Shown here: positions 25,315-33,404 of the stretch, in pieces
How the letters are laid out: each line of letters begins with the position of its first letter
How positions within the stretch are numbered: the first letter of the stretch is position 1
From: a virus
Length of the DNA: 64,000 bases
Direction: 5' to 3' (one strand)
IMG/VR virus record: IMGVR_UViG_3300035661_000025
Span: 32,401 to 96,400 of that record
Program-made: the position numbers and the translations under genes
Notes under the pieces: generated by a model
What the model was told of the DNA's origin: nothing
The model's database searches: none
The model's input: only the letters and a program-made list of their open reading frames with translations

Positions 25315-26568
25315 GTGAAAACTGCAGGAAATAGATTTTATTTTGAAGAAATTGTAGCAAATATGATAGATCCTACAAATAATCTACAATTTTATGCACA
25401 TTTATTGGCTCAATGTAAAATTTCGATGGATAAATCTTTTAGAGCCCCTGCAGGTGTTTATTTTGATACTTATACATATGGTTTGGTTATAAATCCAATT
25501 CTGTTCAATAAATTTACAAAAAAAGAAAAAGTAGCTATTTTAATTCATGAAGCGTTTCATATAGCATACAATCATGTAACAGTTAGAAAAAAAGATGACC
25601 ATGAAAGATGGAATTATGCTACAGATATAGCTATAAATCAGCTAATCAAAGATCTTCCAAAAACAGCTCTTCATTATAGTCAATTTGATTTACCTGCAGG
25701 ATTTTCGGCAGAGCAATATTATATTGCATTACTTGATAATGAGAAATATAATCAGAAAAAAGAGCAAGATGAAAAGCTAAAAAAACAGATGGAAGAATTG
25801 TTTGAAGAAGCAATTAAGAAAGGATCTTTAGATGTAGATTCTGATGAATGTTTTGGAGATGGTTCTGAAATTGATATACCTTTTGATATACCGATTGATG
25901 CTCATGATAAAGAATCAGAAGGGGATGAAGAATATAGAAAAGAAGTTACCAAAAATATGTTAGAAAAAGCCTCTGAAAAATCTAGAGGAAATGAACCAAG
26001 CGATTACGCTGACATGATTTCTTTATATACAAAAAAAGCTGTGGTTGATTGGCGCAAAGAATTGAGACGGATCGTTGGAAACAAAAAAGCAAATAAACGT
26101 AGAACAATCATGCGTCCAGATCGAAGATTCCCTAATAGAGAAGAAATTAAAGGAATAACTAAAGATCGTATATTTGACTTAATTGTAGTCATGGATGTTT
26201 CTGGCTCTATGCAAGACAAAATGTTGGCTGATGGTTTGAATGAAATTAAAGAAATTTGTAAATTGACTAATTCAAATCTAAAAGTTATTCAAGTCGATAC
26301 AGATATTCATGAAGTAACTGAGGTAACAAAAACAACCACTAAATTTAATAGATCAGCTCATGGCGGAACTAGAATTTACCCAGCAATTGAATATATTAGA
26401 GATAATAAAATAGACCACAACGCTATAGTAATAATTAGTGATATGTGGATAGAATCATCAACAGAGTGGAAAATTCCTCCAAAAGTACCTTGTTTTTTCT
26501 TAAACACTTCAGGTAAAGATTGGGATGGATTTTCTAAATTTAAAAATTTTAAAAATTACCGTATATAA
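25315..26568 (+). CDS. DUF2201-type metallopeptidase + VWA domain protein (MoxR partner)
   Basis: HEAFH, WNYATDIAIN, SAEQYY, W...L; MIDAS DVSGSM, GGT, SD. Confidence 0.9.
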   Translation: MKTAGNRFYFEEIVANMIDPTNNLQFYAHLLAQCKISMDKSFRAPAGVYFDTYTYGLVINPILFNKFTKKEKVAILIHEAFHIAYNHVTVRKKDDHERWNYATDIAINQLIKDLPKTALHYSQFDLPAGFSAEQYYIALLDNEKYNQKKEQDEKLKKQMEELFEEAIKKGSLDVDSDECFGDGSEIDIPFDIPIDAHDKESEGDEEYRKEVTKNMLEKASEKSRGNEPSDYADMISLYTKKAVVDWRKELRRIVGNKKANKRRTIMRPDRRFPNREEIKGITKDRIFDLIVVMDVSGSMQDKMLADGLNEIKEICKLTNSNLKVIQVDTDIHEVTEVTKTTTKFNRSAHGGTRIYPAIEYIRDNKIDHNAIVIISDMWIESSTEWKIPPKVPCFFLNTSGKDWDGFSKFKNFKNYRI

Positions 26569-26579
26569 AGAAGAAAAAA

Positions 26580-27311
26580 ATGAACATTAAATTGCGAGAC
26601 AATTTACATGAACTTAAACAAAAATTGCTACAGAACGTGTTATGTATTTCTGATACTCATTTCGGGCATGTAAAAGTCTTTGAGAAATTTGAACCAATTA
26701 GAAAAACTTATACATTATCTAAAGGTAAGCAAACATTAAAAGATTTTGAAGATCTTATGGTAGAAAACTGGAATGAAACTGTTTTTGATTCTGATACTTT
26801 AATTCATTTAGGTGATGTATGTATTGATAAAATGAACCCGACAAAAACTGAAGAAAACCTAGCAATATCTTTAAAGTTGGAAGGGGAATCATTAATCTTA
26901 ATTAAAGGCAATCATGATAAATCTGATAATTCTCTTTATTATCAAAACGGATGGAATTTCGTAATTGATTGTCCAGTAATTTTATTAGATAATCCTAAAA
27001 TCATAGACAATGCTCCAGGACTAGCTCATTGTATTATAATTGATATAAACGGCAAAAGGGTAATGTTTTCCCATTTTGGAATCCACCAATATAATGAAAA
27101 CTTTGAGGGAAAATATAGAGAACCATTTAGATATTTGACCAAATTATACAATGATTATAAATGTGATTATAATATCCATGGACATAGTCATTCAAATGCT
27201 ATTAACTCAGAAAAATCATTTAACTGTAGTGTTGAAGTAATAAACTTCACACCTAAAAAATTGACAGATATTTTCGCTGTTTTAACTAAATTTAAGAATA
27301 AACTGTTATAA
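26580..27311 (+). CDS. calcineurin-like metallophosphoesterase
   Basis: SDTHFGH, HLGD, KGNHD, SH, HGHSH. Confidence 0.9.
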   Translation: MNIKLRDNLHELKQKLLQNVLCISDTHFGHVKVFEKFEPIRKTYTLSKGKQTLKDFEDLMVENWNETVFDSDTLIHLGDVCIDKMNPTKTEENLAISLKLEGESLILIKGNHDKSDNSLYYQNGWNFVIDCPVILLDNPKIIDNAPGLAHCIIIDINGKRVMFSHFGIHQYNENFEGKYREPFRYLTKLYNDYKCDYNIHGHSHSNAINSEKSFNCSVEVINFTPKKLTDIFAVLTKFKNKLL

Positions 27312-27337
27312 TAATATACAAAATAAAAGGAAAGAAT

Positions 27338-28189
27338 ATGACCTCAAAAATTCAAGAAAAAGACCCATTCGGTCATAGAATTAAAGAATATGAAGCAAGT
27401 GCAGAGATTTATTTGGATAAATCCAAATACTCCATCATGCGAATTGATGGGCACGGCTTTTCTAAATGGACGAAAGGTTTCTCAAAACCTTTCGATGAAT
27501 TTTTAGCAAATGCATTAGCAGAAACAGCTAGAGCATTGATGGATGAATTTAAAGCAGTTTGCGCTTATTCTCAATCTGACGAAATCACCTTGATTTTTGC
27601 TCCAGATGATAACTTGATTTATTCTGGAAGAATTCAAAAACTAACTTCATTAGCGGCATCATTTGCTTCAATGAAGTTCAATGAATTAATCAGAGAAACT
27701 CTTAGTAAATTATACACTGAGAAAGAAGGTTTGATGCGTGTTAGATCTGCTTCTGTTGAATTATCTAAAGAATATGATAAAATTAACAATAAGGTTTCTT
27801 TTTTGGAGACAAAAATTGGAAGAGCATTTTTTGATGCTCGAGTTTTTCAAGTTCCAGATAAAACTGAGGCATTTAATTCACTTTTATGGAGAACCAGAGA
27901 TTGTGAACGAAACTCTAAAAACGTTTTTGCTCAAAGTATTCTATCCCATAAAGAATGTCAAAACAAAACAAGCAATGAACTAGTTGAGATATGTGAAGAG
28001 CTTGGTCATTTTTGGAGCGATATTCCAGATAAATACAAATATGGAATTCTTTGGAAAAAAGAAACGTATTTGAAACAGCCAGAAAACCCAGAGTTAGAAC
28101 CATGTTTCAGAACAAGATTCATCCAAATCATTAAGAGATTGAATTACTCAGACGAGAATGTTGAAATGGTGCTTTGTAATAAACTTTAA
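27338..28189 (+). CDS. thg1: tRNA(His) guanylyltransferase Thg1-like 3'-5' polymerase
   Basis: RIDGHGFS, QSDEITL, GRIQKL.S, FDAR, WR..DC.RNS; promoter 27292-27312. Confidence 0.92.
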   Translation: MTSKIQEKDPFGHRIKEYEASAEIYLDKSKYSIMRIDGHGFSKWTKGFSKPFDEFLANALAETARALMDEFKAVCAYSQSDEITLIFAPDDNLIYSGRIQKLTSLAASFASMKFNELIRETLSKLYTEKEGLMRVRSASVELSKEYDKINNKVSFLETKIGRAFFDARVFQVPDKTEAFNSLLWRTRDCERNSKNVFAQSILSHKECQNKTSNELVEICEELGHFWSDIPDKYKYGILWKKETYLKQPENPELEPCFRTRFIQIIKRLNYSDENVEMVLCNKL

Positions 28190-28242
28190 TAAGTTTCAAA
28201 GGTAATTTCTGTTATAATTAAATGTAAGAAAGAAGGAGTCCT

Positions 28243-28347
28243 ATGGCGTATTTTTTAACAATTACATTCATTGCTATAATGATGTATGGCGTATTTTCAT
28301 CTTGTAATGTATTTTCAGAATTGAAGGGTAGAATAAATGTTAATTAG
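28243..28347 (+). CDS. small membrane peptide (34 aa, not in ORF track)
   Basis: AAGGAG RBS after TGTTATAAT (28210-28218); hydrophobic. Confidence 0.45.
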   Translation: MAYFLTITFIAIMMYGVFSSCNVFSELKGRINVN

Positions 28348-28711
28348 CAATATACGAAGTGTATTAGAGATTTGTTTCAAATCTAATGAAACTTTAATGA
28401 TTGAAGGCCCTCATGGGATTGGAAAATCAGAGGTTGTAGCTAATTTTGCTACAGAAAATAATATGCATAATGAAACATTATTCTTGTCCAACCAAGAAGT
28501 GGGTGATTTGATTGGTATGCCACGTTCAATAGAACGTAATGGTGAGGTTATTCATACATGGACGAAACCTATTTGGTTACAAAAAATGGAAGAAGCGGTT
28601 ATGCCCGCTAAATTCGATGTAGATGATTTAGAATTTTCGGATGAGGACTTCAAGGCTTTCGTTTACTCAAAACTAAAGGAATTGAATGAAGTTAGTAAGG
28701 GACAAATATAA
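28337..28711 (+). CDS. MoxR/AAA_5-type ATPase, N-terminal half (Walker A)
   Basis: IEGPHGIGKS, LFLS.QEVGDLIGMP, W..P.W; no Walker B. Confidence 0.85.
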   Translation: MLISNIRSVLEICFKSNETLMIEGPHGIGKSEVVANFATENNMHNETLFLSNQEVGDLIGMPRSIERNGEVIHTWTKPIWLQKMEEAVMPAKFDVDDLEFSDEDFKAFVYSKLKELNEVSKGQI

Positions 28712-29213
28712 AGATATAATCCCAGAAGATAAGTTATTTTATATTGAACAAACAGATAAAAAAAGTTTAATAAAATATCTTTCTTTAAAACTAAAAGAGG
28801 AAACTCAAGAGTTTATAGATACTGGATTGACATCTCTAGAAGAACTAGCGGATATTATGGAAGTTTTAGATACCATAATGGAAACATTTGGAATCAATCC
28901 TGATGAGTTGGCGAATGTAGCTAAAAATAAAAATGAAGAAAAAGGGTCTTTTAAAGATTATCTTCTATATGATGATTCTGTTCCAGAAGAAGCAAAAAAT
29001 AATGGCGGAAGCACAGATTATTATAAACTTCCTGCGGGAGCTAAAGATTTGCAAGATCTCATTGAATTTAAAAATATGAACTTTTCTCAAGGTAATATAT
29101 TCAAAGCTATGTATAGATCTGGCGTAGAGCATCATTCGACATATGAAAGAGATTTGAATAAAATTATTTTCTTTGCAAAAAGAGAGTTAAACCGAATTAA
29201 AGGAGACTCATGA
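28686..29213 (+). CDS. MazG-like pyrophosphohydrolase fused to DUF3310-like domain
   Basis: MKLVRD, KLKEE..E, EELADI; GGSTDYY, DLIE..MNF.QGNIFKA.YR, DL.K. Confidence 0.75.
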   Translation: MKLVRDKYKDIIPEDKLFYIEQTDKKSLIKYLSLKLKEETQEFIDTGLTSLEELADIMEVLDTIMETFGINPDELANVAKNKNEEKGSFKDYLLYDDSVPEEAKNNGGSTDYYKLPAGAKDLQDLIEFKNMNFSQGNIFKAMYRSGVEHHSTYERDLNKIIFFAKRELNRIKGDS

Positions 29214-29734
29214 AAGTAATAAATTTTTTCGGCGGTCCAGGTACCGGAAAAAGCACTACAGCTGCAGGATTGTTTCATTTAATGAAAACAATGGGTTATA
29301 AAGTAGAATTGGTAACAGAATACGCCAAAGACGTAGTTTATCAAGAATCATTTTTTAAACTTAAAGATCAATTGTATATTTTTACTAAACAACATCATAA
29401 GCTGTGGAAACTTAGAGGAAAAGTAGATTATGTTATAACGGATAGCCCGTTATTGTTATCGTTACATTACTTTCAAGAAAACCCCATTTATAATGAAGAT
29501 AATTTCAAAGCTTTTGTTAAAAGCACATATGATGCTTATGACAATATAAATATTTATCTCATCAGGAATTTAGACCATCACCCATATCAGGGATATGGTC
29601 GAACTCAATCAGAATCTGAGGCGATACAGATAGATCGAGATCTTGTAGAGTTGTTGACACAAAATAAGGTTCAATATTCATCTAAACTAATTACTTCAAG
29701 TATTGTTCAGGATGTTTTTGATATAATCAAATAA
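29210..29734 (+). CDS. P-loop kinase (AAA_28/NadR-like)
   Basis: GGPGTGKST, EYAK, ITDSPLLL, GR.Q...EA..ID. Confidence 0.8.
   Translation: MKVINFFGGPGTGKSTTAAGLFHLMKTMGYKVELVTEYAKDVVYQESFFKLKDQLYIFTKQHHKLWKLRGKVDYVITDSPLLLSLHYFQENPIYNEDNFKAFVKSTYDAYDNINIYLIRNLDHHPYQGYGRTQSESEAIQIDRDLVELLTQNKVQYSSKLITSSIVQDVFDIIK
29719..29727 (+). promoter_or_regulatory. extended -10 promoter for SLT-bactofilin operon
   Basis: TTTTTGATATAAT inside the last codons of the kinase gene. Confidence 0.5.
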
Positions 29735-29879
29735 CCTAAAAATGTAAGGTTATGTAACTTTTGTTTTTCTGGCAAATGAAACAAAAAGATAGTTACAATG
29801 ATTGAAGCACTTTCTTAAGAAAGTAGGTAAAAGATGATAGGTTTCATCTTCCAACGAAATTGAAAAAAGGAGATCAATA
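29731..29879 (+). other. candidate structured 5' leader RNA
   Basis: Four consecutive stem-loops: ATAACCT/AGGTTAT, GTAACT.TTTGTTT/AAACAAA.AGTTAC, ACTTTCT/AGAAAGT, AAGATGA/TCATCTT. Confidence 0.45.
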
Positions 29880-30593
29880 ATGGTAATAAATCCAATTGAT
29901 AATTTACGGAAATCTATTAGAATTCAACGAAATTTAATAGTCGGTTTAGTAGCACTTGTTGCAGTGACAGTGTATAGCGCTAAATTGTACATTGATTCGT
30001 ATTATAACGACATTCGTATTGAGAATAAGAATGTAAAAGAACTCAATGATAAAAAAGCTCAAGAAATCGAGCGCCTTAAGAAAGATTTGGAAAGAAATGA
30101 AGCTGAGTTGAAGAAATTTAATGTTCAGAAACAAGTAATTTCAATGTATATTAAGGAGAAAAATCCTAAAGTTGATGATAAAGAAGCTGCTTATTATGCT
30201 ACTGAAATCATCAAATCCTCAAACAAGTATGAAAATGTTAAACATACGGTTTTAACCGGTTTAATAGATTCTGAATCTTCTTTTAAGAAGAATGTCAAAC
30301 ACAATGCTGGATCATCTATACACATTGGTGTAAAAGGATTTACAGGAGTTGCTTCAGGTATATGGTCTAAAGAATTGATTGCCAATCATGTTATCCGAAA
30401 ACCAAGTGATTTGGAAATTCCAAAATACGCTATAGCCGCCGGGGCATATATTTTGAACAAATATTCTAAACATCAGTCCACGTTTGAGGCACTAGTTGAT
30501 TATAAATCAGACTGTCCTTTAGGTAGAAAACAAGCTCTAGATGTTTTAGCTAGAGCTGATAAAATCAAAAGAATGGAAGAAAGATATGCTTAA
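29880..30593 (+). CDS. membrane-anchored lytic transglycosylase (SLT-like)
   Basis: N-terminal TM, coiled coil, then GLIDSESSF (catalytic Glu), G.KGFTGV, I.AGAYIL, AL..Y. Confidence 0.7.
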   Translation: MVINPIDNLRKSIRIQRNLIVGLVALVAVTVYSAKLYIDSYYNDIRIENKNVKELNDKKAQEIERLKKDLERNEAELKKFNVQKQVISMYIKEKNPKVDDKEAAYYATEIIKSSNKYENVKHTVLTGLIDSESSFKKNVKHNAGSSIHIGVKGFTGVASGIWSKELIANHVIRKPSDLEIPKYAIAAGAYILNKYSKHQSTFEALVDYKSDCPLGRKQALDVLARADKIKRMEERYA

Positions 30594-30936
30594 TTTTTTC
30601 AAAAAAGAAAATCCCGATTTTACAATAATCGGGAAAGATTCTACATTTAAAGGCGAGATAACCAGTTCTCATCAAGTTTACATAAAAGGCACTGTAGAAG
30701 CTAATAAAATCATAGCTAAAAGTGTTTTTATTGAAGTTGGAGGTTCTTTAACTGCCGATATAGAATGTTCCGAAGTTTTTATCGCTGGAGTTTATAAAGG
30801 AAACATTAATTGTAGTAATATCACTATTGAACCTACCGGTGACGTAGAATCAGATATTACTTATACATCTATGTTGAATATAAATCCAAACTGCACATAT
30901 AATGGAACCATAAAAAAATCTTTAAATTCCGTTTAA
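30586..30936 (+). CDS. bactofilin (polymer-forming cytoskeletal protein, CcmA-like)
   Basis: MLNFFKK membrane-targeting-like start; TIIGKDSTFKGEI, IKGTVEA, IEVGGSLTADI, IAG.YKGNI, IEPTGDVESDI.Y..L.I....YNG beta-helix turns. Confidence 0.88.
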   Translation: MLNFFKKENPDFTIIGKDSTFKGEITSSHQVYIKGTVEANKIIAKSVFIEVGGSLTADIECSEVFIAGVYKGNINCSNITIEPTGDVESDITYTSMLNINPNCTYNGTIKKSLNSV

Positions 30937-30938
30937 AT

Positions 30939-30972
30939 TATCAGGTTGTTTTAAGCAACAACCTGATATAAT
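30939..30972 (+). promoter_or_regulatory. early promoter embedded in a 12-bp inverted repeat
   Basis: TATCAGGTTGTT-TTAAGC-AACAACCTGATA overlapping TTAAG-N8-TGATATAAT. Confidence 0.65.
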
Positions 30973-30999
30973 AATACAAATAAACCTTCAGGAATGATT

Positions 31000-31953
31000 A
31001 TGATAATAACTCGAGAAATCCTTCAAAACTTATACAATCAGTATTATGAAACAGACCACAGTCTGTTGAGCAAACACAACACTCACGTTCATTATTCAAA
31101 AGGTAAACACACCTCATTATTACTAGATGAGTTAAATCGTGCACCATTGGATATAAGACAAGCTGCACTTCAATTAATCCTAAGCAAACAAATACATCAA
31201 CATACATTACCTTATTTTAAAGGTATTCCGGCTATGGTTACAGCTTGTATTAATCCAGAAGATGGATATCAAGTTGAAGCTATGGACCCAGCATTGCTAG
31301 ACAGATTTTTAACATTAAATGTTACTGTTGATGCAAACGCTTGGCTAAAATGGGCGGAAAATCATGATGTCTTAAAAGTTATTAGATCTTTCATTCGTGA
31401 TAATCCAGACAAATTACATTGGAGTTCAGTAGAAGTTCAAGATTCAAAATATCCTACTCCACGAGCATGGACTAAATTATCGGACGTTCTTAAAAACATC
31501 CCAAATGCCAAGAAAAATCCTTTGACTTTAGATTTAATAAAAGGAAAAATTGGAGAGAGTATTGGGACTCGTTTTTATACTTATTTTTGTAAATTTGATG
31601 AACAAATAACATCAGATGATATTCAAGCATATGTAGAAAATCATGAATCTGAAGATCCAGAAATCATTGGAAATGATTTGAGAAAATCATTATTAAAATC
31701 TATGGATGTATTGAACAAATCTGAATTGACTGAGTTTTTCATTAAGACACAAATAGTAAAAAACGCCACAGTCAGTTCAGCCCTTACCGCACTCAGTATG
31801 TTATGGTGTGTAGAATTGGAAACTCGTGGTTCTATTTTGAGCAATTTAAAAGAAAATCATCTAGATGTATTTAAAATTTTCTTGAATTTGGATACAGATC
31901 GTAAAATAACTAAATCCATCACTTCTTTAATATTAAAAGGACGTGAATCATAA
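31000..31953 (+). CDS. MoxR/AAA_5-type ATPase, C-terminal half (Walker B, Arg finger, lid)
   Basis: LLLDELNRA, ACINP, MDPALLDRF, PTPRAW; no Walker A; AGGA RBS favours ATG 31000. Confidence 0.85.
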   Translation: MIITREILQNLYNQYYETDHSLLSKHNTHVHYSKGKHTSLLLDELNRAPLDIRQAALQLILSKQIHQHTLPYFKGIPAMVTACINPEDGYQVEAMDPALLDRFLTLNVTVDANAWLKWAENHDVLKVIRSFIRDNPDKLHWSSVEVQDSKYPTPRAWTKLSDVLKNIPNAKKNPLTLDLIKGKIGESIGTRFYTYFCKFDEQITSDDIQAYVENHESEDPEIIGNDLRKSLLKSMDVLNKSELTEFFIKTQIVKNATVSSALTALSMLWCVELETRGSILSNLKENHLDVFKIFLNLDTDRKITKSITSLILKGRES

Positions 31954-32048
31954 ATATTTTTAATTAAAATAAAGGAGTACATGTGGGTATTGAATGTTGA
32001 TATGACTTTGAAGGAAAGATTTGATTAATCACCTTTAGAGGCAGTATA

Positions 32049-33404
32049 TTGAATAATTTTGAAAAAATTTATGTTTTAGACACGAACGTTATTTTGAATG
32101 ATGTAGTTAATATTGAGATCTTATCTCAACAATCATCTAACTTGATAGTTTTACCAGAAACGGTAATGGACGAAATTGATGTTAAAAAGACTGGGTTTGA
32201 AGAAATAAATTTCCAAGCCAGATCTTTCGGACGCTTGCTAGAGAAAGCTGATATATTGTACGCTGATAAAAATACAGATTACACAATATCAAGAATGTTT
32301 ATCAATTCGGATAAAAACATTACTATAGATGTTATTTCATTAAACAAATACAAAAGTGTAGAAGGAAATGTAGACCGACACATTTTAAATGACCGAAAAA
32401 TTTTAGAGGTAGCTGAAGAATGTGAAAGACTTTATGATATTCCAATAGTGTTCATTTCTAATGATGTTATGTGTAGACTAAGAGCAATATCTTTAGGTTT
32501 AAAAACTGAAGGTATGGGTCGAGATTACAAAGAAGACTTGGAATTATATCAAGAAATTGAATATAAAGAAGATACATTACCTAAAGCAGTTGAAGCTAAA
32601 GATTTATCAATTCCTGATAATATTTTTGGATTATGTTTGTATAAAGAAGATGGAAATCGAAGTTACTATTACAGATCTGGAAACATATTTCATGAGATTA
32701 ATGAAGATGAACTTAAACGCCAAGATATCAAACCTCAAAACATAGAACAAAAAATATATTCTAGTATGATAAACGATCCATTTTATGATGTAGTTGTAGT
32801 AGATGCACCAGCAGGTTCTGGAAAAACATTGATTGCTTTGAGTGCAGCTATGAAATTAGTAAAAAAGAATCCTACAAGATTCAATAAAATCGTTTACATG
32901 AGAAAAACAGTAAATGCAGATGATGAAGAAATGGGCTTTCTTCCAGGAACACAAGAAGATAAATTATCTCCTTATTTGGCTCCATTGTATTCTAACTTAG
33001 AAGCAATAATCAATGCTAAATTTAAACAAAATAGAAAATTCACTAAAGAAGAATTAGAGAATAAGATGATTGATTTGATTAAAGAATATCAAATAACATC
33101 TTTGTTTGAAGGTTTTTTGCGTGGAACTAATATAAGAGATGCTGTTGTAATTATAGATGAAATTCAAAATGAATCGGTAGCTAGCATTAGAACATCATTG
33201 ACTCGGGTAACAGAAGGTTGTAAAATAATTGCTATTGGTTCTAATAAACAAATAGATAACAAATATATCAATAAACACACATCGGCTCTAACATATTTGA
33301 TTAACCGAATAATGTTAGAAAACAAAGATGTTAATATTGGAGCAATTAAATTAACAAAAACTGTACGTTCTAGAATTGCAGAATGGGCAGACGATTTTAA
33401 ATAA
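32049..33404 (+). CDS. phoH: PIN-PhoH protein
   Basis: VLDTNV, ND.KIL; APAGSGKT, MGFLPG, LRG, IIDEIQN, TRV, QID, RS. Confidence 0.92.
   Translation: MNNFEKIYVLDTNVILNDVVNIEILSQQSSNLIVLPETVMDEIDVKKTGFEEINFQARSFGRLLEKADILYADKNTDYTISRMFINSDKNITIDVISLNKYKSVEGNVDRHILNDRKILEVAEECERLYDIPIVFISNDVMCRLRAISLGLKTEGMGRDYKEDLELYQEIEYKEDTLPKAVEAKDLSIPDNIFGLCLYKEDGNRSYYYRSGNIFHEINEDELKRQDIKPQNIEQKIYSSMINDPFYDVVVVDAPAGSGKTLIALSAAMKLVKKNPTRFNKIVYMRKTVNADDEEMGFLPGTQEDKLSPYLAPLYSNLEAIINAKFKQNRKFTKEELENKMIDLIKEYQITSLFEGFLRGTNIRDAVVIIDEIQNESVASIRTSLTRVTEGCKIIAIGSNKQIDNKYINKHTSALTYLINRIMLENKDVNIGAIKLTKTVRSRIAEWADDFK

Follow-up and report, generated by a model that had tools for sequence, protein, structure and literature searches.

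The window, a 64,000-nt stretch of viral DNA (positions 32,401 to 96,400 of IMG/VR record IMGVR_UViG_3300035661_000025), carries the motifs of a MoxR-type AAA+ ATPase on two separate open reading frames (ORFs) of the plus strand. The N-half (28337–28711; 124 aa, stop codon TAA at 28709–28711) covers β1, Walker A, α1, β2, α2 with the helix-2 hairpin and an acidic tail, and contains GPHGIGKS (Walker A, residues 24–31) and GDLIGMP. The C-half (31000–31953; 317 aa) covers a head, Walker B, sensor 1, the arginine finger, sensor 2 and a helical lid/C-terminal domain, with the motifs LLLDELNRA (Walker B), INP (sensor 1), DPALLDRF and TPRAW; it has no P-loop. Its start codon is most likely ATG 31000 rather than the alternative ATG 30994, because an AGGA ribosome-binding site (RBS; 30988–30991) lies 8 nt upstream, the starts of relatives align with it and the database protein has 317 aa. 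The 356-position profile phrog_1297 ('ATPase') matches the N-half at positions 11–96 (E = 2.5e-12) and the C-half at positions 97–310 (E = 8e-38), and it matches only these two ORFs in the whole 96.4-kb record. The halves thus complement each other within a single family profile, in agreement with the earlier note, which had recognized the two ORFs by their motifs. Taken singly, each half falls short of the Pfam gathering score (AAA_3 gives 18.0 bits against 27), and PF07728/PF07726 are present in one-piece homologues.

The gap between the halves measures 2288 nt, matching the ~2.3 kb previously estimated, and holds four genes co-oriented with them on the plus strand. Insert gene 1 (28686–29213, 175 aa), whose first 26 nt are shared with the end of the N-half, has a weakly MazG/PRA-PH-like N-terminal part (Pfam PRA-PH, E = 0.035, under the cut-off) and a kinase-associated C-terminal domain common to phage kinase-fused PHROGs (phrog_4521, E = 7.6e-12; phrog_4897); its counterpart in relatives is a 90–93-aa ORF or two ORFs. 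Insert gene 2 (29210–29734, 174 aa) is P-loop nucleotide-kinase-like (Pfam AAA_28, E = 1.8e-11; phrog_2107 'thymidylate kinase', E = 1.1e-20) and is 61–64% identical in relatives. Insert gene 3 (29880–30593, 237 aa) encodes a lytic transglycosylase with an SLT domain (Pfam SLT, E = 4.8e-6) and is also kept in relatives. Insert gene 4 (30586–30936, 116 aa) encodes a bactofilin (Pfam Bactofilin, E = 7.5e-20), which is longer in relatives (155–247 aa). The earlier note had listed MazG-DUF3310, kinase, SLT and bactofilin genes; Pfam supports the last three, whereas the MazG match is sub-threshold and the Pfam scan did not detect DUF3310 in insert gene 1. Pfam and PHROG scans of the four genes found no nuclease family, hence no homing endonuclease at the break, and no recombinase. 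Two related loci (L005 and L009) carry at the break an extra 329-aa ORF matching phrog_2475 (unknown function), the beta-rich model of which has no PDB match. Upstream, a hydrophobic 34-aa leader ORF (28243–28347) overlaps the N-half start by 11 nt; relatives have a different ORF of 47–48 aa at this position. Further upstream, the partner gene of the MoxR ATPase (25315–26568, plus strand, 417 aa) is intact, as had been claimed, and encodes a metallopeptidase (HExxH) and VWA-like protein with a HEAFH motif and matches to DUF2201_N (E = 2.3e-20), DUF2201 (E = 6.7e-12) and phrog_1314 (E = 2e-68).

Both halves lie downstream of a promoter-like extended −10 motif on the plus strand. One, TGTTATAAT (28210–28218), is upstream of the leader ORF and the N-half, and L005, L006 and L008 have TTTAAG-N10-TGATATAAT at the equivalent site upstream of their N-halves. 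The other, TGATATAAT (30964–30972), has TTTAAGC 10 nt upstream and is conserved in four genomes. A repeat search located a perfect 12-bp stem-loop (30939–30968, plus strand) directly 3' of the bactofilin stop codon, with a fold z-score of −3.9 and a 3' arm that extends into this second motif; a hairpin occurs at the equivalent place in L005, L006 and L008. The whole block before the C-half, consisting of hairpin, TGATATAAT, AAGGA and ATG, is kept in four genomes, which supports the proposed dedicated promoter and RBS of the C-half. Motifs of this class number 23 on the plus strand and 4 on the minus strand of the window and precede many plus-strand genes; a sigma-70 consensus scan returned sites no commoner than chance, and the promoter assignment is based on motif recurrence and conservation. 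This pattern supports separate expression of the halves, each putatively from behind the same promoter-like motif.

Proteins that combine both halves exist in other phages. In Alteromonas phage AD45-P1, a single frame, gp052 (435 aa), aligns with residues 5–124 of the N-half and then with residues 5–286 of the C-half, and a homologue of the partner gene lies directly upstream of this one-piece ATPase. At least eight uncultured 'long' one-piece forms likewise have no stop codon through the break region. The break coincides with an insertion of ~65–70 aa between helix α2 and the Walker B strand, which is contiguous in AD45-P1 and many uncultured phages, and which the Vibrio phage forms (369 aa) lack. 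Both the tail of the N-half and the head of the C-half are homologous to this contiguous insertion, corresponding to its first and second half, respectively. Only ~12 residues at the end of the N-half and ~5 at the start of the C-half (~17 in total) have no homology to one-piece proteins. Structural modeling with AlphaFold2 was done on a one-piece long homologue, P0010 (mean pLDDT 93.6), rather than on the halves of the window. In this model, the insertion (residues 89–157) is ordered, with strands 92–94 and 98–100, helix 103–112, a loop at 113–120, strand 121–123, helix 124–134 and strand 151–153, immediately followed by β3/Walker B (159–164). A helix-2 β-hairpin (62–67/70–75) between helices 55–59 and 79–88 marks a MoxR-like AAA+ core, and Foldseek ranks NorQ, both by itself and together with the NorD VWA domain, and CbbQ highest (E = 3e-9 to 3e-7); by sequence, the nearest PDB entry is the MoxR protein 2r44. 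The break of the window aligns to loop 113–120 of P0010 and is thus predicted to fall in a surface loop of the ordered insertion domain. The alignments to full-length homologues and the model together bear out the suggestion in the earlier note that the break lies inside a ~70-aa insertion between Walker A and Walker B.

The split arrangement is conserved. Five IMG/VR contigs from five samples, at 53–58% amino-acid identity, show the same split order with both ORFs intact in all five, namely VWA, Thg1-like, N-half, variable cargo, kinase, SLT, bactofilin, C-half and PhoH; the halves are 2.3–3.8 kb apart across split loci, and a VWA gene is near the ATPase in L014–L017. Thirteen stand-alone N-halves (alignment A5) share G24, H26, G27, I28, G29 and K30 without exception, and D43 and E44 (Walker B), N85 (sensor 1), R102 (arginine finger) and R155 (sensor 2) of the C-half are likewise invariant (alignments A2 and A6). 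The NG86 dN/dS of the two halves is about 0.05–0.11 overall, with ~0.10 for the N-half and 0.05–0.10 (0.03–0.10 at the widest) for the C-half, and it reaches 0.08–0.25 in the N-half tail and ~0.16 in the C-half head; the values are comparable to those of neighbouring genes but rough, because synonymous divergence (dS, 0.8 to >3) among the relatives approaches saturation. Contigs from independent runs bridge both junctions, and a ~95% identical 22.6-kb contig from a wastewater study covers 27300–32100 unbroken, excluding misassembly. Stand-alone halves, 100% to 52% identical, recur in many independent assemblies. Since both pieces are kept intact by selection in distant relatives, this is not a dead gene but most probably a working 'gene in pieces', as the earlier note had argued.

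Breakage at this loop appears to have occurred more than once. Stand-alone N- and C-halves ending or starting in the same loop are found at no fewer than four places on the family tree, and an AU test rejects a single origin of stand-alone halves (p = 3e-7). We tentatively consider, as a rather doubtful extension, that the ~65–70-aa module between α2 and Walker B could be a dedicated, evolutionarily mobile 'clasp' that gives this AAA+ family its tolerance to fission. Under this joint proposal, the same loop would have been broken independently in at least four, perhaps at least eight, lineages; the long, short and split states would interconvert through recombination; once-split genes may have fused again to give some of the one-piece 'long' forms; and the break would be a landing site within an operon at which phages gather cargo genes, in this case those for the kinase, SLT protein and bactofilin. 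If true, a natural and portable point at which to split an AAA+ core would exist between Walker A and Walker B.

We propose, with a probability of about 0.8, that the phage makes a functional MoxR-class AAA+ ATPase from two separately encoded pieces, whose re-association, ATPase activity and biological role we infer. The ancestor would be a one-piece gene of the 'long' subfamily with the ordered insertion domain. DNA presumably entered the surface loop of this domain and cut the gene in two, the inserted DNA now being the 2.3-kb four-gene block. The N- and C-piece would be translated separately, each from its own start codon and RBS and each preceded by a TTTAAG-N10-TGnTATAAT promoter-like motif. 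The two polypeptides most likely co-fold into one AAA+ protomer, to which the N-piece would contribute β1 with Walker A and β2, and the C-piece β3 (Walker B), β4 (sensor 1), β5, the arginine finger, sensor 2 and the lid. With the catalytic elements divided in this way, the active site would therefore be composite. As the two halves of the insertion domain, the N-piece's acidic tail and the C-piece's head probably form the clasp uniting the pieces, and the assembled ATPase would act with the metallopeptidase-VWA protein at 25315, as in MoxR-VWA pairs. Fragment complementation of this kind is demanding and counts against the proposal, as the core sheet would be built from both chains with β1 between β4 and β5.

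The distance between the pieces and their separate promoter-like motifs could also suggest that both were retained after the split but no longer cooperate; the C-piece might, for example, serve the VWA protein as an ATP-independent adaptor, with the N-piece being a small P-loop protein. We regard such separate roles as unlikely. The N-piece keeps an invariant Walker A, and the C-piece an invariant Walker B, sensor 1, arginine finger and sensor 2, which is expected only if a complete ATP site still forms, and both halves occur together in all five related loci. Purifying selection also acts on the tail and head, neither of which contains catalytic residues, and under the established AAA+ topology neither piece alone holds the full core sheet. 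That the pieces are decaying pseudogene remnants left after an insertion, or an assembly chimera, is scarcely credible: neither half alone reaches the Pfam gathering score, but both ORFs are intact at 53–58% identity with dN/dS of ~0.1, and the independent assemblies contain both the stand-alone halves and the two junctions.

It is also very improbable that a single product is restored by joining, whether through a self-splicing intron, split-intein trans-splicing, ribosomal bypassing or programmed DNA excision. Introns and inteins are frequent in phage genes (PMC2988022), and two contig 'joints' skip 2.5–2.9 kb; however, both joints match by only 21 letters on one side, in one contig each, and the joint from 28582 to 31132 looks as expected for a short-form homologue in a different phage. 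A search of 27500–32500 matched no Rfam family at E ≤ 1, group I and II introns included, and the interval is filled by four conserved protein genes with their own starts, under purifying selection, with no recombinase or nuclease gene among them; an intron-interrupted gene was rejected on the lack of a ribozyme match there and on this gene content. The junction has no conserved Cys/Ser/Thr, and the ~12 + ~5 non-homologous residues leave no room for IntN/IntC, on which grounds a gene fractured by a split intein was rejected as well.

The two-piece ATPase can be compared with several known systems. Phage MoxR AAA+ ATPases with a metallopeptidase-vWA cochaperone have been described (Iyer et al. 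2021, PMC7824862), and in the rV5-like phage Bas54 the MoxR gene is required to overcome the defence system DS-28 (PMC13716836); rV5-like MoxR genes are distant tblastn matches of the C-half (22% identity, E = 2e-7). The locus shares with these systems a MoxR-class ATPase and a vWA protein whose N-terminal domain is a HExxH peptidase, but their ATPase is a single polypeptide, whereas the one encoded here is divided over two ORFs, with two further genes between it and the partner gene. Its role in this phage may be that of a virion-assembly chaperone or an anti-defence factor. The bacterial MoxR AAA+ hexamers NorQ-NorD and CbbQ-CbbO (PDB 9qh4, 9qh8, 6l1q) likewise have an AAA+ core with a helix-2 insert and a VWA partner. 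Their sequence identity to the one-piece homologue is only 12–16%, and NorQ and CbbQ are single chains of 246–267 residues, whereas the one-piece homologue has 433 aa with the ~65–70-aa insertion and a long helical C-terminal domain. In the fractured genes that Dassa et al. reportedly described in 2009, split inteins occur together with a free-standing endonuclease; the two ORFs with other genes between them are similar here, but intein halves are absent. Narrow literature searches found no published description of a natural AAA+ module split at this point.

The split phage MoxR ATPase is a variant of phage 'genes in pieces' with no homing endonuclease in the break. Phage enzymes made in two parts and assembled without splicing have precedents among T4-like phages, including NrdA-a/mobE/NrdA-b of Aeromonas phage Aeh1, gene 39/60 with mobA of T4, and 43A/43B of phages 25 and 44RR (PMC3045599, PMC2988022). 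As in the Aeh1 type, the gene is contiguous in relatives, inserted DNA has produced two separately translated ORFs with their own starts, reassembly would need to occur without RNA or protein splicing, and the terminal peptides at the break are candidate assembly elements. The locus departs from that type in that Pfam and PHROG scans show no HNH, GIY-YIG, LAGLIDADG or similar endonuclease between the pieces, and the insert, which varies in content among relatives, consists instead of four cellular-type cargo genes. The tail and head, being homologous to a contiguous domain, predate the insertion, and only the ~12 + 5 terminal residues are new. Also in contrast to the Aeh1 type, the interrupted protein is an AAA+ motor, with the cut between its Walker A and Walker B motifs, and the same loop has been broken in several lineages.

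The 96.4-kb IMG/VR viral record that holds the window is ~55% complete and has ~30% G+C, and genes of nucleotide metabolism are numerous in the window, RNA ligase, helicases, PhoH, DNA ligase, NAD kinase and a Thg1-like protein among them. An earlier note had described here a MoxR-type AAA+ ATPase in two pieces with complementary motifs and four genes between them, and this arrangement is borne out by the ORFs and by the PHROGs profile phrog_1297 ('ATPase'). The N-half (28337-28711, 124 aa) contains the P-loop and GDLIGMP and then stops; the C-half (30994/31000-31953) contains Walker B, sensor 1, DPALLDRF and TPRAW and has no P-loop. They occupy profile positions 11-96 and 97-310, respectively, and are the only phrog_1297 matches in the window's own record, where no second, intact copy of the ATPase was found. 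In Pfam, each half by itself scores under threshold, so that ATPases split in this way are probably recorded as hypothetical proteins or pseudogenes. Four co-oriented genes fill the 2288-nt gap between the pieces. The first (28686-29213) encodes a 175-aa protein that combines a MazG/PRA-PH-like part with a C-terminal domain associated with kinases; it is followed by genes for a nucleotide-kinase-like protein of the AAA_28 family, an SLT transglycosylase and a 116-aa bactofilin (30586-30936). The kinase, SLT and bactofilin identities proposed before were recovered, and the MazG part of the first gene is a sub-threshold match only. The metallopeptidase-VWA partner, said to be intact, is indeed so at 25315-26568. 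A metallophosphoesterase gene and a Thg1-like gene stand between the VWA-peptidase and ATPase genes in the window (25315-28336), the former with no match in the five IMG/VR contigs that share the split locus (L005-L009); in Alteromonas phage AD45-P1 (L001 2679-5305), the VWA-peptidase and ATPase genes overlap by 4 nt. The VWA/ATPase module as a whole gives the impression of an insertion hot spot.

To locate the break, we compared the pieces with one-piece homologues. Among cultured phages (tblastn), AD45-P1 gp052 ('MoxR-like ATPase', 435 aa) matches N-half residues 5-124 and then C-half residues 5-286, consecutively and in one frame. Against the 369-aa protein of ~190-kb Vibrio phages, the alignment is confined to N residues 1-92 and C residues 35-319. 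The two sets of alignments thus separate a 'long' subfamily, which carries an insertion of ~65-70 aa, from a 'short' subfamily that lacks it. Judged from these alignments, the window carries a long form that has been cut within its insertion; in eight further uncultured long forms the reading frame is open across the break region. We modelled the long homologue P0010 with AlphaFold2 from a 140-sequence alignment (mean pLDDT 93.6). In the model, the insertion (residues 89-157) is ordered and consists of a pair of short strands followed by a helix (92-112), then a loop (113-120) and a strand-helix-strand unit (121-153), directly preceding beta3/Walker B at 159-164; the helix-2 beta-hairpin typical of this AAA+ clade lies upstream of it. 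By alignment, loop 113-120 is where the N-piece ends and the C-piece begins, which agrees with the prediction of a break inside a ~70-aa insertion between Walker A and Walker B. Structurally, the model comes closest to NorQ, both by itself and in complex with the NorD VWA domain, and to CbbQ; the sole PDB sequence match is the MoxR protein 2r44.

Several trivial explanations for the split were weighed. Misassembly, for which a read or contig check had been proposed, is contradicted by contigs from independent public sequencing runs that cover both junctions, one of which, 22.6 kb long and ~95% identical, comes from a wastewater study and spans 27300-32100 in one piece. Two contig joints that skip the insert, each seen in a single contig with 21 letters on one side, were set aside as short-form genes of other phages; one of them, which links 28582 to 31132 in one contig of run X4, corresponds to the point where alpha2 meets Walker B in a short-form gene and so probably stems from another phage of that sample. 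Rejoining by splicing finds little to stand on, as Rfam detects no intron or ribozyme at the locus. None of the runs on record as RNA holds the stretch, and the libraries from wastewater that carry the label 'RNA-Seq cDNA' probably represent DNA. Intein halves are excluded because only ~12 residues at the C-terminus of the N-piece and ~5 at the N-terminus of the C-piece have no homology to one-piece proteins. As for a mobile element, the interval between the pieces encodes no recombinase or endonuclease, and the flanks of the insert showed no repeats, direct or inverted, indicative of a transposon or target-site duplication. Nor do the heads of split lineages, the part of the insertion at the start of the C-half, resemble one another more than the bodies do (37-50% versus 44-54% identity), as a mobile cassette would predict.

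The split is also conserved. Database proteins of C-piece length share 75, 73, 54, 53 and 52% identity with the C-half and have their start residue in common, and those of N-piece length share 79-52% with the N-half. L005-L009, from five samples, have a common gene order of VWA, Thg1-like, N-piece, cargo, kinase, SLT, bactofilin, C-piece and PhoH, with the ligase farther on. Both ATPase pieces are intact in all five while the cargo between them differs; the interval was therefore remodelled with both pieces preserved. Among L005, L006 and L008, the N-piece has a dN/dS (NG86) of ~0.10 and the C-piece of 0.05-0.10, similar to neighbouring genes; the tail at the end of the N-half has 0.08-0.25 and the head ~0.16. 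With dS high, all these values are rough. Rough as they are, these codon-level estimates exclude relaxed selection on the pieces, the outcome that the dN/dS comparison had been proposed to detect. With the catalytic residues all invariant as well, the suggestion that the gene is not dead holds.

Differences in the cargo can be followed gene by gene. L005 (4193-5182) and L009 have an extra 329-aa gene directly after the N-half, which belongs to phrog_2475 (unknown function), has 10 homologues and no match in the window's own record, and gives a beta-rich AlphaFold2 model (pLDDT 80). It was considered as a homing endonuclease and rejected, with no Pfam family, no Atlas match and no PDB fold match. 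The first cargo gene, a fusion in the window (28686-29213), is present as two same-frame ORFs in L005 (5007-5804), and L006-L008 keep its C-terminal domain alone (L006 4063-4335). The bactofilin is 116 aa in the window versus 155-247 aa in relatives (L005 7172-7915; L006 5697-6164), with variable C-terminal extensions, and the SLT gene always precedes it with a short overlap.

The earlier note had also assigned the C-half its own promoter and RBS. A generic sigma-70 and terminator consensus scan was uninformative, with promoters at chance level. The phage does have a recurrent motif, (T)TTAAG, ~10 nt, TG(A/T)TATAAT, then AAGGA and ATG 15-25 nt on. TGnTATAAT occurs 23 times on the + strand of the window and 4 times on the - strand, mostly just 5' of genes, and exact TGATATAAT 11 times against 4.2 expected. 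Promoter-like motifs on the + strand lie at 2840, 3371, 5886, 8050, 17675, 21962, 23084, 24924, 27304, 28210, 30964, 33986, 43830 and 48199, among others. The one at 30964 precedes the C-piece and follows a perfect 12-bp hairpin that trails the bactofilin stop, and this block of hairpin, motif, AAGGA and ATG is kept whole in L005, L006 and L008, in line with the assignment. The motif likewise stands ahead of the N-piece, with its short leader ORF, in relatives as well as in the window. Both pieces thus appear to be driven by one promoter class, which, if real, would help to keep them in step. The leader ORF (28243-28347) encodes a hydrophobic 34-aa peptide between the promoter-like motif and the N-half, whose start it overlaps by 11 nt; its place in relatives is taken by an unrelated, basic ORF of 47-48 aa.

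Stand-alone halves also occur outside the window clade, as C-halves (P0014, P0029 and P0032) and as N-halves (P0129-P0134, P0137, P0140, P0144/P0280, P0150 and P0154/P0294). The three C-halves have a Met 2-4 residues ahead of the same 'TR.EL' helix, and the N-pieces of at least seven more clusters, drawn at 50% identity, all stop no more than a few residues past the 'F..FV' helix. P0280, with 53 contigs, and P0294, with 24 (up to 61 kb), are too abundant to be sequencing errors. Trees were built from the C-terminal body, excluding the insertion columns. On them, split forms fall at four places, namely the window clade, P0014 beside the short form P0019 (83% identical), P0029 beside the long form P0010 (67% identical) and P0032 beside the short form P0045, and the starred branches force at least three origins. 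A single clade of split forms is rejected by the AU test (delta lnL 278, p = 2.6e-7), for a group defined after the tree was seen. The tree fits with independent fission as well as with recombination inside the gene. Viral contigs searched with the single C-half, or with P0294 and P0280, gave no relative, and those searched with profile A3 gave relatives but no locus of the other split lineages; genome contigs searched with P0029 and P0280 gave no relative, a single metagenome scan returned one-piece forms only, and INPHARED held no phage with the split and no DNA-level relative. P0195, a public metagenome protein, is a stand-alone N-half-like form in which an apparent LacI-type helix-turn-helix N-terminus replaces the P-loop region, and may be a chimera or assembly artefact. 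Among protein representatives, the N-half profile A5 also matches repeated AAA modules in giant proteins of 2,400-5,000 aa, in 4-5 stretches each. The repeated breakage of one loop across lineages suggests a structural permissive site or a mobile-element target.

The strand order of the AAA+ sheet is 5-1-4-3-2. The N-piece would supply beta1 (with the P-loop) and beta2 and the C-piece beta3-beta5, so that neither could form the core alone and the ATP site would be composite. The insertion domain, one half of which lies on each piece, is the obvious candidate for a clasp. All 18 of 18 stand-alone N-halves have acidic tails (net charge -1 to -8), and the six window-clade heads scored are neutral to slightly basic. 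In Aeh1 NrdA-a/NrdA-b, the assembled enzyme requires the tails that flank the break (PMC3045599). We propose the break-side tails as assembly elements in the window's ATPase too, with the difference that they are halves of a pre-existing domain and not new sequence. As for function, phage MoxR/peptidase-vWA pairs are proposed virion-assembly chaperones (PMC7824862), and a distant rV5-type MoxR gene is needed to overcome a defence system (PMC13716836).

In summary, the sequence evidence indicates that the two-piece MoxR AAA+ ATPase is real, conserved and under selection, and its re-association and activity are predicted. The position of the cut means that the central beta-sheet and the ATP site would need building from two chains; should the pieces reassemble, the locus would supply AAA+ engineering with a split site and clasp ready for use, and would allow the co-folding of a Rossmann-like core to be tested. 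A narrow search of the literature turned up no account of a natural AAA+ module whose cut separates Walker A from Walker B. To our knowledge, phage "genes in pieces" have so far been tied to homing endonucleases; ordinary cargo genes as the interrupting DNA, stable over deep divergence, make the phenomenon wider than endonuclease insertions. Fragmented phage genes are an established phenomenon and the locus is an instance of it, yet one that differs from the known members in that a four-gene cargo block forms the interruption and there is no endonuclease, the cut falls between Walker A and Walker B, and the break site is common to several lineages.
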